NCBI GenBank assembly: GCA_007378985.1
Contig: VMHB01000003.1
Coordinates: forward strand, 28,283 to 92,282
Length of the DNA: 64,000 nt
Reading direction: 5' to 3'
Source: Parcubacteria group bacterium Greene0714_7
GTDB lineage: Bacteria > Patescibacteriota > Minisyncoccia > Phycocordibacterales > Phycocordibacteraceae
Shown: in pieces, positions 11,681 through 51,355 of the stretch
How positions within the stretch are numbered: the first letter of the stretch is position 1
Layout of the letters: the number at the start of each line of letters is the position of its first letter
Translations under genes and position numbers: made by a program
Notes under the pieces: model-generated
Told to the model about the DNA's origin: nothing
Seen by the model: the letters and a program-made list of their open reading frames with translations, nothing else
Databases searched by the model: none

Positions 11681-11954
11681 GAGGGAAGGGAGGTAGGCGC
11701 ACGGGCTGGCTCTGGCGTAAATGCCTATTTTGGGTAGAATAGTGAGACATTCTGTGGTTAGCATTATTGCTTAGTTCCACAGAATTAAAGTTGTTTAACA
11801 ACATATTCCGCCGAGCGCATGGTTTTAAGAAAAACCATGCTTTCTCCGACGGCACTCGGACAATATGAAAGCATGCTTTCATATTGCTCCTCGCTTGTCG
11901 TAGGAGCTCAATTCTTGAGCTCCGGCGGAAACAAAGTGGGTAGAGCCCACGTAT

Positions 11955-12246
11955 TCCGCGGTAGCTCAATGGTAGAGCAGCTCCCTGTCCAAAGGCAGCC
12001 TTCCCGAGGAATCGGGATTGAAAAACGAGGTGAATTCGGGGAAACCCTAATCCTATAAAAGGATGGGCAATCCCGAGCCAAGCTCTGACGATTTGTTGGA
12101 GAAGGCGTAGAGACTATCCCGAAAGGGAGTAGGCCGAAAGGTCGAAGCGCCTCGCATCCAGATCGGATGATGATATAGTCCACGCCCTTCGTAATAGGGG
12201 ATCACGTGTAAGGAGTTGGTTGTAGGTTCGAGTCCTACCCGCGGAG
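11955..12246 (+). tRNA. tRNA-Asn(GUU) interrupted by a group I intron (intron 11989-12208). Exons are 11955-11988 and 12209-12246, and the spliced anticodon loop is CUGUUAA.
   Basis: 5' exon: acceptor TCCGCGG, D-arm GCTC/AATGGTA/GAGC, anticodon stem GCTCC, loop CTGT, then the intron. 3' exon: TAA, GGAGT, variable loop TGGTT, T-arm GTAGG-TTCGAGT-CCTAC, acceptor CCGCGGA, discriminator G. The intron has a P1 in which exon CUGU pairs with GGCAG (U35.G), GAAA tetraloops (GGGGAAACCC, TCCCGAAAGGGA, GGCCGAAAGGTC), the R element AGAGACTA, the S element GATATAGTCC, and a terminal G. Confidence 0.75.
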
Positions 12247-12254
12247 CTTGATAG

Positions 12255-44225: not shown

Positions 44226-45294
44226 ATGTCTGTATTGATCTTCATCATCATGCTCGTTGCCCTCATTGTGGGGCATGAATTCGGACACTTAATTGTGGCT
44301 GCCAGAATTCGGTCTTGGCTTTCCTCCAAAATTGTGGGGGAAGAAAATTGGAGAAACGGAATACACAATTAATGCACTGCCGTTTGGTGGTTTCGTAAAG
44401 ATTGTTGGTGAAGACGATGCCGGTTTAGATGATCCTCGAGCATTTGCGAAGCGTCCAAAAATTCTGCAAGCTGCAACACTTTTTGCGGGGCCATTTTCTA
44501 ATCTTGTTTTAGGTTTAATTCTTTCTACCAGTGCACTCATGGTAGGTATCCCTGCGCTCGTTGGAGATACAGAGAATGCAAAGTATATACAGGATCCGCA
44601 TGTACGAGCAGTACAGGTACTTGCCAGTAGCCCCGCATTCAATGCGGGCATCAAAGCAGGCGATGAAATTGTTTCCGTCTCCTCAAATAGTGTTGAAACA
44701 AAAATAGAGAAACCTGAAGATGTTCTTACTGCCATAGAGGATGCAGAGGGCCCCATTACAGTTGGTGTTCTTCGAAACAATGTTCAGCAAGATTTCACCA
44801 TTACACCCCTTAAAGGTCTTGATTCTAAAAACCCTGAACGATTAGTCATTGGTATTGCGCCCGCACTTGTGGGCACGCTCTCGCTACCTATTGAGAAAGC
44901 TTTTGTTGCAGGAGTTACCGATACCATTACTCAAACAAAGGGAATCATAATTGGGCTAGGGACACTTATTAGTCAGGCGTTTACATTGTCTGCGGATATC
45001 TCAAATATTACGGGGCCGGTTGGCATTGTGTCACTTGTTGGAGATGCTAGCGGGTTTGGCTTGGGTTCCGTTCTTTCTCTCGCAGCGTTAATTTCAATGA
45101 ACTTGGCAATTGTGAACTTGCTTCCGTTTCCAGCTCTTGATGGCGGACGATTAGCACTCCTCTGTATTGAAACAATCTCTCGACGCAAGATTCCTGCACG
45201 AGTTTCTGATGTTGTAAATGTCGCTGGTTTCGCCGTGCTTATTCTTCTCATGCTCGCGGTTACAGCGCACGATATCTTTCGTCTAATTCAGTAA
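44226..45294 (+). pseudogene. rseP: RIP metalloprotease RseP/RasP homolog that appears frameshifted: the HEFGH zinc motif is in one frame (44226-44372) and the remainder (EFGLGFPPKLW...GGFVKIVGEDD, PDZ, LDGG) is in the +1 frame from 44293
   Basis: MSVLIFIIMLVALIVGHEFGHLIVAAR in frame 0. From 44293 the +1 frame reads WLPEFGLGFPPKLWGKKIGETEYTINALPFGGFVKIVGEDD. The junction is at the second GAATTCGG, ~44304-44312. Confidence 0.6.
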
Positions 45295-45302
45295 CTTTTT
45301 GT

Positions 45303-45352
45303 TTCCTCAAAACATTCCAACATTCTCAAGAATGTTGGAATGTTTTGAGGAA
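45303..45352. repeat. 22-bp-stem perfect hairpin TTCCTCAAAACATTCCAACATTCT-caa-GAATGTTGGAATGTTTTGAGGAA downstream of rseP
   Basis: Perfect inverted repeat without a T-run, so either a stability element or an atypical terminator. Confidence 0.5.
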
Positions 45353-45355
45353 CTG

Positions 45356-45384
45356 TTGACGGTTAGCTTTTATAGGTTTATAAT
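45356..45384 (+). promoter_or_regulatory. consensus sigma70 promoter TTGACG-N17-TATAAT for the pro operon leader
   Basis: Perfect -10 and near-perfect -35 with a 17-nt spacer, about 250 nt upstream of the proA ATG. Confidence 0.65.
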
Positions 45385-45391
45385 ACTTTGA

Positions 45392-45597
45392 GTTGAATAA
45401 AAGCACTTGAGTCTGGTACCCAGCCAGACAAGCTGCGCACGAAATTCCACGGTGGATATAAGTGCGACGGAAAAGGAAACCGTAAAAAATACCTAAAGCG
45501 TGTCAGCCGAAAGGCAGGAGCGCTAAGAACAAAGAAGGGTGGTACCGCGATATTTTCGCCCCTCATTCCCGAAAGGGAGTGAGGGGCATTTATTTTG
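45392..45597 (+). ncRNA. T-box riboswitch leader (probably tRNA-Pro-responsive): Stem I ~45403-45466, T-box sequence AGGGTGGTACCGCG (45536-45549), antiterminator, and the terminator CCCCTCA...TGAGGGG with a T-run (45559-45597)
   Basis: Canonical T-box sequence with the UGGU bulge. The A1/A2 helices (AGGG/CCCT and GCG/CGC) overlap the 5' strand of the terminator. The downstream genes are proA-proC-proB-(csaA)-proS. Confidence 0.7.
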
Positions 45598-45633
45598 CCC
45601 AAACACAAGAATATTATTCTAAAAAAATTACAT

Positions 45634-46866
45634 ATGAAAAATAATCTCAAGCAAATACGCAAAGCCTCACTCTTGCTCGCAGGAGCAAATGAGGCTTCGC
45701 GTAATAAATTTTTACGGCTTCTCACTTTAGAAGTAAAGAAAAATAAAAAGAAAATATTGGAAGCGAACGCTACTGATATGGCTCGCGCCAGAGCCGGCAC
45801 TCTTTCCTCCGCTTTCATTGAACGACTTCACCTTGATGAAAAAGGCTTAGAGCACATAGTTGAAAAGCTTCGTGGTGTAGAAAAACTCCAAAGTGGGCTT
45901 GGTGAAGTTATAGAACAAAGAAAAGGTTTCAAGGGATTGCTTTTCAAGAAGGTGCGCACTCCGCTCGGGGTTTTGATGATTATTTACGAAGCAAGACCAG
46001 AAGTAACCATAGATGTTGTTGCATTAGGAATAAAGTCTGGGAATGCCGTCATCGTGAAAGGTGGCTCCGAAGCGCTCTCTACCAATAGGGCGCTCTATGA
46101 ATGCATACGCACCGCTTTGAAAAAATCACACTTACCTGAGGATTCTGTTCATTTTATAGCAACATCTGATCGCAGAGTTACCAATGATTTCTTGAAGCAA
46201 AATGACTTCATTGATTTGGTTATTGCTCGTGGTGGTTACAAGATGGTAAAAGCGGTAATGAGCGCTTCAACAATTCCAGTCCTTGCTCATGCTGCTGGTG
46301 GAGCGAGAATATACGTAGACAAGAGCGCAGATCTCCATAGTGCAGAAAAGATACTGGTGAATGCAAAAATCACGAAACCTTCAGCGTGCAATTCTCTAGA
46401 CACTATTGTGGTGCACAAGGGCATTGCGAAGAAATTTGTCCCGAAGATAGTAGAAGTAATGGAGCGAGTGGGAGTCACTGTCCTTGGAGATGCTGAATCA
46501 AAAGAGTATGCAAAAGTGAAGAGCGCAGTTTCAGCAGATTGGGATACTGAATTTCTTGCGCTCACTGTAGCTATTAAAATAGTAAAAGACGCTGAAGAAG
46601 CTGGTCAGTTTGTGAATGAGTACAGTAAACAGCATTCAGAAGGAATTATTGCAAAAAATAAAAAGGTCGTGCGTGAATTCGTGAACTCCATTGATGCGGC
46701 GGCTGTCTTCATCAACTGCTCGCCAAGGCTTCATGATGGCTATGTATTCGGTCTTGGCTCTGAAATGGGAATCTCTACGGGAAAGTTGCACGCAAGGGGA
46801 CCTGTAGGGCTTAAAGAATTAACAACCTATAAATGGGAAGTGTATGGAAAAGGTCAAATCCGTTAA
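45634..46866 (+). CDS. proA: gamma-glutamyl phosphate reductase
   Basis: Aldehyde dehydrogenase-like ProA motifs (GNAVIVKGGSEA...). The start is taken as the first ATG after the leader terminator; the ORF track begins at 45595. Confidence 0.85.
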   Translation: MKNNLKQIRKASLLLAGANEASRNKFLRLLTLEVKKNKKKILEANATDMARARAGTLSSAFIERLHLDEKGLEHIVEKLRGVEKLQSGLGEVIEQRKGFKGLLFKKVRTPLGVLMIIYEARPEVTIDVVALGIKSGNAVIVKGGSEALSTNRALYECIRTALKKSHLPEDSVHFIATSDRRVTNDFLKQNDFIDLVIARGGYKMVKAVMSASTIPVLAHAAGGARIYVDKSADLHSAEKILVNAKITKPSACNSLDTIVVHKGIAKKFVPKIVEVMERVGVTVLGDAESKEYAKVKSAVSADWDTEFLALTVAIKIVKDAEEAGQFVNEYSKQHSEGIIAKNKKVVREFVNSIDAAAVFINCSPRLHDGYVFGLGSEMGISTGKLHARGPVGLKELTTYKWEVYGKGQIR

Positions 46867-47662
46867 GAAAAAAATAACCATCGTTGGCGGAGGTCATATT
46901 GGTCTCGCGCTCGCCATGGGGTTAGTGCGAAGTGGTGCGGTGAAGGGTTCTCAGTTGACGGTGAGTAGTCGGCGTCTCTCGAAAATTCAGCACCTGAAAA
47001 AAATTGGCATTGCTGTCACTGACGACAATGCTTCTGCTGTGGCTCATGCTGATTGGGTATTCCTTGCGGTGAAGCCGAAGCTTGTTGGTAGTGTGCTTGC
47101 GGGTCTACAGGGTTCCATAAAAAAGCAATTAATTATTTCGCTTGCCGCAGGAGTCACTATTAAGAAACTCAAAAGCTACGCTCCGAACGTGGGTACTTTC
47201 GCACGAATTATGCCCAACATTCCAATAGCTCATATGAGCGGAGTTGTGGGTCTTTTTGCAGGAACGATATCCAAAACGAATCATGCAGAGTTGAAGGAAA
47301 TGCTTCAGGTATTGGGGTTTGTATTGCAGGTGAAAGACGAACGCGAGCTTGAAATGCTCACGGTAGTGTCAGGTTCCGGTCCTGCGACAGTGTCCTTCTT
47401 CATTGACGCACTTGCGCATGCCGGTCGAGAGTTAGGTCTATCACAGAGCACGGCAGATGCTCTTGCAAAGAATACGTTCAAAGGCACCAGCGCGTACATG
47501 GATGTAGAAAATGTTTCAGCAGAAAGCCTTATGAATTCCGTAGCAACAAAGGGAGGGCTTACTGAAGCGATACTGGGGAGTTTAAAGGAAAGTAGTGTGC
47601 GAAGAAGTATCGCTCGAGCGTTGAAAGTTGGGTATGTGAAAATAAAAAAACTGAGAAATTAA
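46844..47662 (+). CDS. proC: pyrroline-5-carboxylate reductase
   Basis: ITIVGGGHIGLALAMGL Rossmann motif and P5CR architecture. Confidence 0.8.
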   Translation: MEKVKSVKKKITIVGGGHIGLALAMGLVRSGAVKGSQLTVSSRRLSKIQHLKKIGIAVTDDNASAVAHADWVFLAVKPKLVGSVLAGLQGSIKKQLIISLAAGVTIKKLKSYAPNVGTFARIMPNIPIAHMSGVVGLFAGTISKTNHAELKEMLQVLGFVLQVKDERELEMLTVVSGSGPATVSFFIDALAHAGRELGLSQSTADALAKNTFKGTSAYMDVENVSAESLMNSVATKGGLTEAILGSLKESSVRRSIARALKVGYVKIKKLRN

Positions 47663-47675
47663 TCTGGTCTCTCGT

Positions 47676-48737
47676 ATGTATAAAAGAATCGTGATTAAAA
47701 TAGGAACCGGAGTCATAACAGAACATGATTGCCTCGAGGAGAGTGTCGTTCGCGATCTCGTACGCCAAGTGGTGGCACTTCGCGAGCGAGGTATTGAAAC
47801 AGTAATAGTGAGCTCGGGTGCTGTTGCGACGGGGCGTAGTCTCCTATCGTCTTTGAGCGGATCTGAAGATGGCGCGCATAGGCAGGTGTATGCGGCTGTC
47901 GGGCAAATAGGTTTGATGTCCCTCTACAGTAAGATTTTTTCCGAACACAGGTATGCTTCAGCGCAAGTCTTGGTCACAAAAGAAGATTTCAGGGACAAGA
48001 ATCATTATGCGAGCATGAAAAGGTGCTTCGAGAATCTTCTCCGAGAGCGCATTGTGCCTATTGTGAATGAAAACGACGTCATCGCACGGCACGAACTTTC
48101 ATTCAGCGACAACGATGAGCTTGCTGGGCTTGTTGCATCACAAATAAATGCGGATCTTGTGGTTATGCTTTCGAGTGTCGACGGCATACTTGAAGGTGTT
48201 GGCACAGCAGGACCGGTGATAGCCGAGGTCACGCCTGAGAATGCAGAATCGCTTGCGCTTCATGTAACGGAAGCAAAATCAGTAGGCGGGCGAGGAGGAA
48301 TGAAAAGGAAATTTGAAATAGCGAAGAGGCTCATGGCGCAAGGAATTGAAGTGTTTGTAGGAAATGGTAGAGAAAGAGATGTTCTCATTGCGGTAGTAGA
48401 AGGAGACCTTTTGGGGACCCGCTTCATTCCTGACCGCAAGCTCTCTGCAATAAAACGCCGGTTATCTAACTCAGAAGGTCTTTCTGCGGGTGCCGCCTAC
48501 GTGGATGCACGTGCGGAGGAAGTGCTCCTCTCAGGCGGGTTCGTGAGTCTGCTTCCTGTGGGTATCACAAAAATTGAAGGAAACTTCAAAAAGGGAGATG
48601 TTATTGAAATTAGGAACTCTGCGAAAAAGAAAATCGGCTCAGGCATCGCGCAATATGATGCTACAAAAGCGGTGGAGAATTGCGGCAAGAAAGGAGCGAA
48701 AGCACTGGTGCACTATGATTATCTCTTTATTGGCTGA
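47676..48737 (+). CDS. proB: glutamate 5-kinase with a C-terminal PUA domain
   Basis: Amino-acid kinase fold (IVIKIGTGVIT...) followed by a PUA-like C-terminus. Confidence 0.85.
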   Translation: MYKRIVIKIGTGVITEHDCLEESVVRDLVRQVVALRERGIETVIVSSGAVATGRSLLSSLSGSEDGAHRQVYAAVGQIGLMSLYSKIFSEHRYASAQVLVTKEDFRDKNHYASMKRCFENLLRERIVPIVNENDVIARHELSFSDNDELAGLVASQINADLVVMLSSVDGILEGVGTAGPVIAEVTPENAESLALHVTEAKSVGGRGGMKRKFEIAKRLMAQGIEVFVGNGRERDVLIAVVEGDLLGTRFIPDRKLSAIKRRLSNSEGLSAGAAYVDARAEEVLLSGGFVSLLPVGITKIEGNFKKGDVIEIRNSAKKKIGSGIAQYDATKAVENCGKKGAKALVHYDYLFIG

Positions 48738-48774: not shown

Positions 48775-49110
48775 ATGGCAACTATAGATGATTTGGGAAT
48801 TGTAGATATTAGGGTTGGAAAAATTATTGAAGTGTTTGATTTTCCCGAAGCAAGAAAGCCTGCGTATAAGTTGACCATTGATTTTGGATCTGATATTGGC
48901 ATCAAACATTCATCCGCACAGCTTGTGAAACATCACACAAAAGAAGAACTTCTCGGCAAGAAGGTTCTTGGTGTAGTCAATTTTCCTCCTCGGCAAATTG
49001 GACCTTTTGTTTCAGAGTGTTTGACGCTCGGTGTGCCCGATTCAGAGGGGCAGGCAATTCTTGTTGTCCCAAGCAATGATTCTGCCATTGTTGGCGGAAA
49101 GCTCTTTTAG
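48775..49110 (+). CDS. csaA: tRNA-binding protein (CsaA/Trbp111-like OB-fold)
   Basis: DIRVGKIIEV...LGVVNFPPRQIGPFVSE, a Myf-domain signature. Confidence 0.7.
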   Translation: MATIDDLGIVDIRVGKIIEVFDFPEARKPAYKLTIDFGSDIGIKHSSAQLVKHHTKEELLGKKVLGVVNFPPRQIGPFVSECLTLGVPDSEGQAILVVPSNDSAIVGGKLF

Positions 49111-49127: not shown

Positions 49128-50381
49128 ATGAAGCAGTCACATCTCTTTACTAAAACCCGCAAGGATGCCCCAAAAGATGAGGTTTCCGAGAATGCTCAGC
49201 TTCTAATTCGAGGTGGCTACATTCACAAGGAAATGGCTGGTGTGTACGATTTACTTCCACTCGGACTTCGTGTTTTTAAAAAAATTGAAAACATTATTCG
49301 AGAGGAAATGAATGCACTTGGCGGGCAGGAAGTTTCTTTTTCTGTTTTGCAGAATCCAGAACTCTGGAAGGCGACTGATCGCTGGGACGATAAAAAAATA
49401 GATAATTGGTTTAAGACTGAACTGAAATCAGGAGGGGAGCTTGGACTTTCTTTTACGCATGAAGAACCAATCACAAAAGCGGTTGCCATGCAGGTATCGA
49501 GCTACCGTGATTTACCTCGATATGTGTACCACTTTCAGTCAAAGTTTCGAAACGAACTTCGCACCAAATCCGGCATCATGCGTGGGCGCGAGTTTGTGAT
49601 GAAAGATTTATATTCATTTTGTCGCTCAGAAGAAGAGCTCGATGCATTTTATAAAGAGGTGGGTATCGCCTATGAAAATATATTCCGTCGTGTTGGCTTG
49701 GGTGATATTACCTACCTCACATTTGCATCGGGCGGAGTATTTTCAAAATTCAGTCATGAGTTCCAAACGGTTTCAACTGCAGGTGAAGACACTATATATA
49801 TAGACACGGAAAAGCGGATTGCAGTGAACGATGAAGTCATGACAGAGGAAGTGCTTGAAGAGCTCTCGCTTGATCGCAATAAGTTGGTAGAAGCAAAATC
49901 TATCGAAGTGGGTAACATCTTTAAACTCGGCACGAAGTACGCTGATGCTCTTGGTCTCAAATACAAAGACAAAGACGGGAAAGATGCCGAGGTACACATG
50001 GGCTCATACGGCATAGGTGTAGGACGACTTCTCGGCACCGTGGTGGAAGTATTGTGCGATGAGAAGGGAATTGTCTGGCCTGCTTCTATTGCACCCTTCG
50101 ATGTTCATCTTGTTGAGCTCTCACAAGGGGATGAAAAAATACGAGGCCTAGCTGATTCTTTATATGAAGAACTTCAAGCTGTTGGTGTTGAGGTTTTGTA
50201 CGATGAGCGAGATACGCGCGCGGGAGAGAAATTTGCAGACTCAGATCTTTTAGGTATGCCATACCGCATAGTGGTAGGACGACAGTCAACCGAAGATTCA
50301 TTTGAAATTGTGAGACGCGTTGATGGGCTAAAAAAGACGGTATCAAAACGGGCACTGTTAACTCAAAATTATGGCTTTTAA
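49128..50381 (+). CDS. proS: proline--tRNA ligase (short form lacking an editing insertion)
   Basis: Class II motifs with a ProRS-specific N-terminus (LLIRGGYIHKEMAGVYDLLPLGLRVFKKIE). Confidence 0.8.
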   Translation: MKQSHLFTKTRKDAPKDEVSENAQLLIRGGYIHKEMAGVYDLLPLGLRVFKKIENIIREEMNALGGQEVSFSVLQNPELWKATDRWDDKKIDNWFKTELKSGGELGLSFTHEEPITKAVAMQVSSYRDLPRYVYHFQSKFRNELRTKSGIMRGREFVMKDLYSFCRSEEELDAFYKEVGIAYENIFRRVGLGDITYLTFASGGVFSKFSHEFQTVSTAGEDTIYIDTEKRIAVNDEVMTEEVLEELSLDRNKLVEAKSIEVGNIFKLGTKYADALGLKYKDKDGKDAEVHMGSYGIGVGRLLGTVVEVLCDEKGIVWPASIAPFDVHLVELSQGDEKIRGLADSLYEELQAVGVEVLYDERDTRAGEKFADSDLLGMPYRIVVGRQSTEDSFEIVRRVDGLKKTVSKRALLTQNYGF

Positions 50382-51355
50382 ATTACCGCGAAAAATAGCA
50401 GAGCGGTTCTCAAAGGATATTGGTATTGATCTCGGTACCGCGACAAGTGGTTGCTGTGGGAGCTTCCGCGAGAGACATGATAGGGAGGACCCCGACACAC
50501 ATCACTGCCATTAGGCCTCTCGTTGAGGGTGTTATTTCTGATTTCGAAGTGACCGAAGAAATGCTTACCTATCTGATTCAAAAAGCACAAACGGAGAAAA
50601 TGCTCTTAGGTCCCCGTGTTGTTATTGGTGTTCCTTCAGGTATTACCAATGTAGAAATTCGCGCTGTCAGAGATGCCGCAAAAAATGCTGGTGCGAGGGA
50701 AGTGTTAATTATTGAAGAGCCTATGGCTGCAGCTTTGGGCGCACGGCTTCCTGTTGAGAGCGCTGTGGGGACAATGCTCGTGGACATTGGTGGAGGTACT
50801 ACCGACATCGCGCTCATGTCACTCGGTGGAATAGTCCGTGCAAAGAATATTCGAATCGCGGGAGATGTTTTGAATGATGATATTGCGAGTTACATTCGTA
50901 GCGAATTCAAAATTTTAATTGGTGAGCGCACCGCTGAGGATGTAAAAGTTGCAGTTGGTTCAGCAATCAAGTTACCAGTGGCACTAGAGACACACATTCG
51001 AGGTCGTGATTTAGTGACGGGACTTCCCCGTGAAATTGTTATTACTGATGCAGATATACGAGAAGCCACTGGCTCCTCTATTATTTCGATTGTTGAAGCG
51101 ATAAAAGAAGTTATTGAAACAGCCCCTCCTGAAGTGGTCTCTGATGTGATGCGTCTCGGTATTTTCCTTACGGGTGGGGGTGCGCTCCTCCGAGGGCTTC
51201 CTGAACTTTTGGCATCAGAGCTTAAGGTACCTATTCATGTAGTCGATGACCCACTCACTACGGTTGTTCGTGGGACCGGCATTGTGCTCGAAGATGTTGA
51301 AAAATATCGCGCAGTATTAGTCGATGACGATGATGGTGTACTCGCGGGGTTCTAA
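50371..51355 (+). pseudogene. mreB: MreB homolog (head of the mreBCD-mrdA cluster) with an N-terminal frameshift or deletion: the DIGIDLGTAT phosphate-1 motif is encoded from the ATG at 50371 in one frame, and the remaining ~300 aa from 50420 in the +1 frame; about 25-30 aa are missing between them
   Basis: Frame A reads MAFKLPRKIAERFSKDIGIDLGTATSGCCGSF... and reaches a stop at ~50512. Frame B reads (TTG)VLISVPRQVVAVGASARDMIGRTP... through the canonical MreB C-terminus. Confidence 0.6.

Follow-up and report, generated by a model that had tools for sequence, protein, structure and literature searches.

In Parcubacteria group bacterium Greene0714_7, an operon for proline biosynthesis and prolyl-tRNA synthetase (ProRS), proA-proC-proB-csaA-proS, is preceded by a leader that carries the sequence elements of a T-box riboswitch. 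We analyzed this leader and its operon in the window, that is, the whole 64,000-nt stretch of contig VMHB01000003.1 (positions 28,283 to 92,282). A preliminary description, made from the letters of the DNA, had named a promoter, a T-box with a UGGU bulge, antiterminator helices competing with an intrinsic terminator, the five-gene operon, and a host resembling the candidate phyla radiation (CPR). Each of these was recovered. The host belongs to the CPR, as ProA of the window is 100% identical to ProA of Greene0714_7, and all five genes matched protein profiles. The features of the locus are as follows.

45356..45384, + strand: sigma-70-type promoter, TTGACG-17 nt-TATAAT, with 11 of 12 consensus matches
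45391..45597, + strand: predicted complete T-box leader RNA (~207 nt), 5′ end through terminator U-run
45402..45434, + strand: ultrashort Stem I, 33 nt (Rfam alignment, covariation, RNAalifold)
45417..45423, + strand: specifier loop UACCCAG, with the proposed specifier CCA at 45420-45422, then the conserved purine G45423
45436..45466, + strand: Stem II, with a 5-bp base (CGCAC/GUGCG), a purine-rich internal loop (GAAA/UAUAA), and a distal 4-bp hairpin
45467..45494, + strand: Stem IIA hairpin ACGG/CCGU (45467-45483) and the proposed Stem IIB pseudoknot
45498..45523, + strand: Stem III, GCGUGUC...GGAGCGC (minimum free energy [MFE] folds)
45536..45563, + strand: antiterminator (discriminator), with helix A1 AGGG/CCCU, bulge UGGUACC, and helix A2 GCGA/UCGC; -7.3 kcal/mol
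45558..45597, + strand: intrinsic terminator, with a 13-bp stem (45558-45587; nine G-C pairs), a GAAA loop, and the U-run AUUUAUUUUG; -27.6 kcal/mol
45634..46866, + strand: proA, glutamate-5-semialdehyde dehydrogenase, the first regulated gene (NF001221, 488 bits)
46844..47662, + strand: proC, pyrroline-5-carboxylate reductase (TIGR00112, 194 bits, just missing the cut-off of 196.75; Pfam P5CR_dimer and F420_oxidored)
47676..48737, + strand: proB, glutamate 5-kinase with a PUA domain (TIGR01027, 264 bits)
48775..49110, + strand: CsaA/Trbp111-type tRNA-binding protein (NF007495, 141 bits; Pfam tRNA_bind)
49128..50381, + strand: proS, a 417-aa bacterial-type ProRS without the INS editing domain (TIGR00409, 419 bits)

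The T-box sequence AGGGUGGUACCGCG (AGGGTGGTACCGCG in DNA) occurs in exact form at 45536-45549, and AGGGTGGTACCGCG was the sole match in the window with two mismatches tolerated (chance expectation 0.13). The antiterminator bulge has 7 nt, UGGUACC, of which UGGU (45540-45543) would pair with the 3′ ACCA of a tRNA. The UGGU in the bulge predicts A73 in the cognate tRNA, and A73 is the discriminator base that bacterial tRNA-Pro usually carries. The 3′ strand of the antiterminator shares 6 nt (45558-45563) with the terminator, so that the two helices are mutually exclusive, and the terminator is much the stronger of the two (-27.6 vs. -7.3 kcal/mol). A scan of 44800-46200 returned only one terminator-like site, the 13-bp stem at 45558-45587 followed by ATTTATTTTG. 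The MFE z-score of the leader was -6.1.

When 45300-45700 (401 nt) was scanned by E-value, the Rfam T-box model RF00230 aligned with 45397-45566 from end to end (model positions 1-219; 40.5 bits, E = 1e-7). The gathering score of RF00230 is 93 bits. The shortfall arises because 76 Stem I positions of the model are replaced by 9 nt in this alignment; Stem II, Stem IIA, the CCGU ‘F-box’, Stem III, and the entire antiterminator aligned well. Stem I is built of a 3-bp base (AGC/GCU), a bulge (ACUUGA opposite AA), a 6-bp helix (GUCUGG/CCAGAC, 45411-45416 with 45424-45429), and the 7-nt terminal loop. The preliminary description had drawn one Stem I-like hairpin at about 45403-45466, with CCC and CCA triplets in an internal loop. 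Were this region a canonical class I T-box, with its specifier loop inside a long Stem I, it would hold both triplets and would have the usual build of transcriptional T-boxes. However, MFE folds, RNAalifold, and covariation all gave two independent hairpins instead, Stem I (45402-45434) and Stem II (45436-45466), and put both triplets in the terminal loop of the first; moreover, the distal part of Stem I is deleted in the Rfam alignment, and there are no AG bulge or distal-loop motifs. We find such a canonical leader scarcely credible here.

The leader was compared with the T-box classes feature by feature. It is without the long Stem I, internal specifier loop, AG bulge, and distal-loop platform of canonical class I. 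It shares with the ultrashort class the specifier in a terminal loop, the missing elbow platform, and the retention of Stems II and IIA/B beside Stem I, and it is without the Shine-Dalgarno sequestrator, the ileS target, and the tRNA-Ile specificity of that class. Among the general T-box features, it has the T-box sequence with a UGGN bulge, an overlapping terminator, and a Pro specifier followed by a purine.

Related loci were fetched by ProA from genomes, metagenomes, and assemblies. Ten distinct ultrashort leaders were found upstream of proA in Patescibacteria: those of the window, L022, L001, L025, L037, L029, L030, L038, L040 (Gottesmanbacteria), and L011. Two Kaiserbacteria leaders, L002 and L032, have an intermediate Stem I whose internal specifier loop is AGUA/GAA; it includes a short distal hairpin and lacks the platform. 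Among the Patescibacteria relatives whose recovered flank was long enough, most kept the gene order frr-rseP-leader-proA-proC-proB-(csaA)-proS. As read directly from their sequences, the relatives’ leaders are preceded by TTGAC(A/G)-~17-TAnnnT, with a spacing of 7-8 nt to the conserved leader start AGUUGAAUAAA; this spacing places the probable transcription start of the window leader near A45391.

When the ten 5′ domains were aligned (A1), standard pairs made up 98.3% of cells, and nine of the 18 pairs had changed on both sides. None of 500 column shuffles reached the observed paired cells, double-change pairs, or covariation score, and four of the 500 reached the observed further pair types. 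Control structures slid by 1-3 columns had 25-41% of cells paired, and RNAalifold, given no structure, returned the same four helices. The helices of Stem I were 100% paired in the ten leaders, with double changes at three pairs, and Stem IIA was likewise 100% paired across the family, with CG to UA and GC to UG changes. Four of the five basal pairs of Stem II had double changes across the family, in agreement with MFE folds. The outer helix of Stem III is GCG/CGC in the window and GUG/CAC in L030, L037, and L040, as read directly. In the antiterminator, which was aligned across nine leaders, 96% of cells were paired, with double changes at three of nine pairs. The putative IIB pseudoknot, which in the window pairs AGG (45474-45476) with CCU (45492-45494), has a constant place in 12 leaders and spans 2-6 bp (AGG:CCU, GGAU:AUCC, UAGGAA:UUCCUA, GGC:GCC, and CCC:GGG).

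R1, a covariance model built on the 5′ domain, had one match in the window (94.6 bits, E = 1e-24; the runner-up scored 10 bits), and its matches in the related loci lay exclusively upstream of proA. Neither R1 nor a pattern search for UGGNAYC found a further T-box of the ultrashort type in the window. With RF00230, the ultrashort leaders scored 32.8-40.5 bits and the intermediate leaders 70.1 (L002) and 64.3 bits (L032); L001, L030, and L037 gave no match. All leaders of this family that we found are below the curated Rfam threshold, and standard annotation would miss every one of them.

The specifier, which the preliminary description had left open, could be narrowed down from the family. The terminal loop reads UACCCAG in the window, L022, and L001; UACCCCG in L025 and L037; UAUCCCG in L029, L030, L038, and L011; and UUUCCCG in L040. 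CC at positions 4 and 5 and G at position 7 never vary; position 3 can be C or U, and position 6 A or C. Only the register of positions 4-6 spells a Pro codon followed by a purine in all ten leaders, and CCA at 45420-45422 is therefore the most likely specifier in the window, predicting tRNA-Pro(UGG). At the standard specifier position of T-boxes, the intermediate leaders read GAA-CCC-G and GAA-CCG-G; across the family, the specifier triplet is CCA, CCC, or CCG, and a G always comes next. A genuine specifier would be expected to vary in this way, at the third codon position with the amino acid kept. The same T-box could instead use CCC (45419-45421) followed by the purine A45422 and read tRNA-Pro(GGG). 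This triplet obeys the codon-plus-purine rule in the window sequence alone, and CCC is the specifier of most relatives. Shifted to the relatives, however, the register would give UCC (Ser) in the UAUCCCG and UUUCCCG loops and would leave a pyrimidine after the codon in the UACCCCG leaders, whereas positions 4-6 yield a Pro codon plus the invariant G in ten of ten. In addition, CCA is the preferred Pro codon of the window (43.7% GC), with 222 occurrences in its long open reading frames (ORFs) vs. 81 of CCC. We consider the CCC register unlikely.

The read-out of the leader could likewise be compared across the family. All intact discriminators among the related leaders read UGGU, and a terminator stem (differing in sequence) with a U-run was present in eight of eight folded related leaders (L022, L025, L029, L038, L011, L040, L002, and L032). 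T-boxes with an ultrashort Stem I described earlier are all translational (bioRxiv 10.1101/2023.02.28.530422; PMC12990946), and the leader might accordingly control translation by a Shine-Dalgarno sequestrator, as in the ultrashort ileS T-boxes of Actinobacteria. But the competing hairpin is a 13-bp G+C-rich stem with an immediate U-run, here as in the relatives, and it ends 37 nt ahead of the ATG of proA with no ribosome-binding site inside it. Translational control of this kind is very improbable.

In established T-box logic, the anticodon of the tRNA pairs with the specifier, and the NCCA end of an uncharged tRNA pairs with UGGN and stabilizes the antiterminator, which the aminoacyl group prevents (PMC7583486; PMC7778990). 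Where Stem I has no platform, Stems II and IIA/B support the short codon-anticodon helix laterally (PMC7583486; PMC7778990). Given its sequence elements, mutually exclusive helices, helix covariation, Pro codons at the specifier position, and operon content, we consider it probable that the leader is a functional T-box that senses tRNA-Pro and controls transcriptional read-through into proA-proC-proB-csaA-proS, as the preliminary description had proposed. RNA polymerase would begin near 45391, and the nascent leader would fold the ultrashort Stem I, whose 7-nt loop would offer CCA (45420-45422) stacked on the conserved G45423. Beside Stem I, Stem II and the pseudoknot of Stem IIA/B should grip the codon-anticodon helix laterally, as in the actinobacterial ileS T-boxes; the tRNA elbow would not be held, as there is no distal Stem I platform. 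When tRNA-Pro is uncharged, its 3′ ACCA would pair with UGGU (45540-45543) and stabilize the weak antiterminator (45536-45563). The stabilized antiterminator would then block the terminator (45558-45587 and the U-run), and transcription would proceed into the operon.

Several observations weigh against this interpretation. A scan of the whole window at the Rfam gathering thresholds reported no T-box, RF00230 being far below its cut-off. The distal platform is absent from the leader, and this platform has been called essential for transcriptional T-boxes (PMC7583486), on the proposed ground that a transcriptional switch must capture its ligand quickly (PMC7583486, section 6.2). The K-turn-like bulge in Stem I (GC-ACUU-GA opposite AA-GC) is non-canonical, with a 4-nt bulge and AA for GA; the relatives have GA or AA at this bulge, with the canonical GUUGA/GGAGC in L011 and L002, and homology with the GA motif of T-boxes suggests that it forms a K-turn. 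The internal loop of Stem II (GAAA/UAUAA), for which we presume the function of an S-turn, does not have the canonical S-turn sequence (AGUA/GAA). Compared with chance sequence by sequence, the IIB pseudoknot was significant in none of the leaders, and that of the window has 3 bp only. A tRNA-Pro gene was sought in the window and 17 loci and none was found. Finally, the discriminator is lost or rearranged in L001, L030/L031, and L037, and the element can therefore decay.

The preliminary description had tied the T-box to an RF00230 match above threshold and to a Stem I with a specifier loop or distal platform. The match falls below the gathering score but runs the full length of the model with E = 1e-7, and Stem I has no distal platform but does present a specifier, in its terminal loop. 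Both yardsticks are too strict, because they define the canonical long-Stem-I class and not T-boxes generally.

The loss of the discriminator in some relatives bears on a further explanation, in which the leader is decaying or independent of tRNA, its terminator is constitutive or otherwise controlled (by a protein or by transcription-translation coupling), and the T-box motifs are relics. Close relatives (L001, L030, and L037) indeed keep the 5′ domain with the UGGNACC bulge lost or rearranged, the decoding domain is unusually small, and no leader was found upstream of proA in L024, L035, and L036, whose ProA is 60-65% identical. In the window copy, nevertheless, every functional element is intact: the 14-nt T-box is perfect, UGGU and the Pro codon are present, and the helices overlap. 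The discriminator of L022, the nearest relative, is identical to that of the window except that one G has become A in the terminator stem's 3′ arm, and all helices covary over about 40% divergence of ProA, which indicates purifying selection on the structure. We regard a relic as distinctly unlikely in the window.

The leaders with an altered discriminator have features of their own. The decoding domains of L030/L031, L037, and L001 scored 85-99 bits with R1 despite the missing UGGNACC bulge. In L001 (2732-3000; ProA 77% identical), Stems I, II, and IIA/B are the same as in the window, and the discriminator is rearranged by a palindrome-rich insertion of 22 nt, with the bulge AUCAAGGUACC in place of UGGUACC. 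In L030 (2309-2500) and L037 (2303-2500), the discriminator is replaced by an ACACACC-loop-GGUGUGU hairpin with a U-run inside an outer helix; L031 is a deletion variant of L030 without this hairpin, and in L040 (1621-1880) a normal T-box discriminator comes after the ACACACC/GGUGUGU hairpin. Pairing would also be possible between the ACACAC segment of this hairpin and GUGUGUC, the 5′ strand of Stem III. These discriminator-less leaders may be decaying or may have another read-out.

T-boxes with an ultrashort Stem I were reportedly described for ileS by Sherwood, Grundy and Henkin in 2015. In the literature searched, they are confined to translational ileS switches of Actinobacteria (bioRxiv 10.1101/2023.02.28.530422; PMC7583486; PMC12990946), with structures known from Nocardia farcinica and Mycobacterium. 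Judged from the descriptions of the class in later papers, the window leader shares with them the short Stem I, the terminal-loop specifier followed by a purine, the lack of an elbow platform, Stem II and the IIA/B pseudoknot (putative in the window) beside Stem I, Stem III, and the UGGN bulge. The actinobacterial switches act on translation by sequestering the Shine-Dalgarno sequence and respond to tRNA-Ile, whereas the window leader has an intrinsic terminator, a Pro codon, and an operon for proline synthesis and proS, and is from Patescibacteria. Also unlike that class, Stem II of the window is without the canonical S-turn, and in most relatives it has 4-6 bp and a GANGA or AAAAA loop.

The proline T-boxes of Firmicutes are, as far as is known, canonical long-Stem-I leaders that pass RF00230. 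They include those of proBA and proI in B. subtilis and of proS in C. difficile (PMC9245794; PMC11477304, Table 2). There, too, uncharged tRNA-Pro activates proline biosynthesis and/or ProRS through transcription antitermination (PMC9245794; PMC11477304), but in the window Stem I is cut to 33 nt, a single leader serves the biosynthetic genes together with proS, and RF00230 gives 40.5 bits where its threshold is 93. The glyQS T-box of Bacillus and Oceanobacillus is also reduced, transcriptional, and directed to a G+C-rich codon; it keeps the long Stem I with the platform and drops Stems II and IIA/B (PMC7583486), the opposite of the window leader. The Kaiserbacteria leaders L002 and L032 have the same operon, discriminator, terminator, Pro specifiers, and sub-gathering Rfam scores as the window, but they keep the internal specifier loop AGUA/GAA and the short distal hairpin. 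Their intermediate Stem I looks like a step between the canonical and the ultrashort form.

No paper on T-boxes in Patescibacteria, the CPR, or Parcubacteria was found in the literature searched, which is not proof of their absence from the wider literature. The truncated-Stem-I model of TBDB was applied only to Actinobacteria and to sequences already found by RF00230 (PMC7778990). A transcriptional, proline-specific T-box with an ultrashort Stem I in Patescibacteria is a new combination. It extends T-box regulation to the CPR, and it implies that the reduced genomes of Patescibacteria tune their amino-acid supply through tRNA charging. The ultrashort Stem I and translational control, which have been treated as linked, come apart here. 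Because the ultrashort Stem I occurs in a transcriptional leader, the kinetic argument for the platform becomes testable on a natural example. The family also represents a second, independent reduction of Stem I, with intermediate and ultrashort forms in one clade, and can be compared with the actinobacterial ileS series. We give about even weight to the broader proposal that Patescibacteria hold an unrecognized class of minimal T-boxes that act co-transcriptionally without an elbow platform, contradicting the need for a long Stem I in fast tRNA capture, and that the decoding module of L030, L037, and L001 may serve another read-out.

The length of Stem II tracks the specifier. In the CCA leaders, it has 31 nt with an internal loop (window 45435-45467, A1 columns 45-78), and in the CCC leaders it is only a hairpin, its 4-6 bp closing a pentaloop of GANGA or AAAAA. 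The leaders with CCA and a long Stem II number three, and the association probably reflects a single evolutionary event. It agrees with a proposal in the literature, namely that weak codon-anticodon pairs are offset by Stem II (PMC7913692; PMC7583486). Taken with the shrunken Stem II of the CCC leaders, the G+C-rich pairing of Pro codon and anticodon suggests a minimal tRNA-decoding module, which would be of use in engineering small tRNA sensors.

In the operon, the TIGR00409 match to ProRS is split in two, the central part of the 568-position profile being unmatched. Among the relatives, csaA was found only in L040/L041 (Gottesmanbacteria), whose CsaA is 77% identical to that of the window although their ProA is just 58% identical; this contrast may reflect gene transfer. 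The idea that csaA substitutes for the lost elbow contact was dropped, as the gene occurs only in the window and L040/L041 and does not travel with the ultrashort leaders. Downstream of proS, mreB (50372-51355) seems to be frameshifted or internally deleted: the ATG at 50372 encodes MAFKLPRKIAERFSKDIGIDLGTA, the long ORF at 50420-51355 is in another frame, and this ORF matches the MreB profile only from position 37-42 on. There is no terminator between proS and mreB, and read-through from the T-box may therefore reach mreBC.

A tRNA gene at 11955-12250 of the window (+ strand), missed by ARAGORN, carries a group I intron (about 220 nt; RF00028, 64.6 bits, 11899-12201) in its anticodon loop. 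Splicing in silico gave tRNA-Asn(GUU) or tRNA-Thr(UGU), which ruled out tRNA-Pro; the U1-A72 pair and G73 favor Asn. A perfect 23-bp inverted repeat, TTCCTCAAAACATTCCAACATTC / GAATGTTGGAATGTTTTGAGGAA, with a 4-nt loop (45303-45352) follows the rseP stop codon and precedes the pro promoter; it triggers spurious plant-microRNA matches in Rfam and probably insulates or terminates the upstream gene. An equivalent hairpin is present in L022 and L025.

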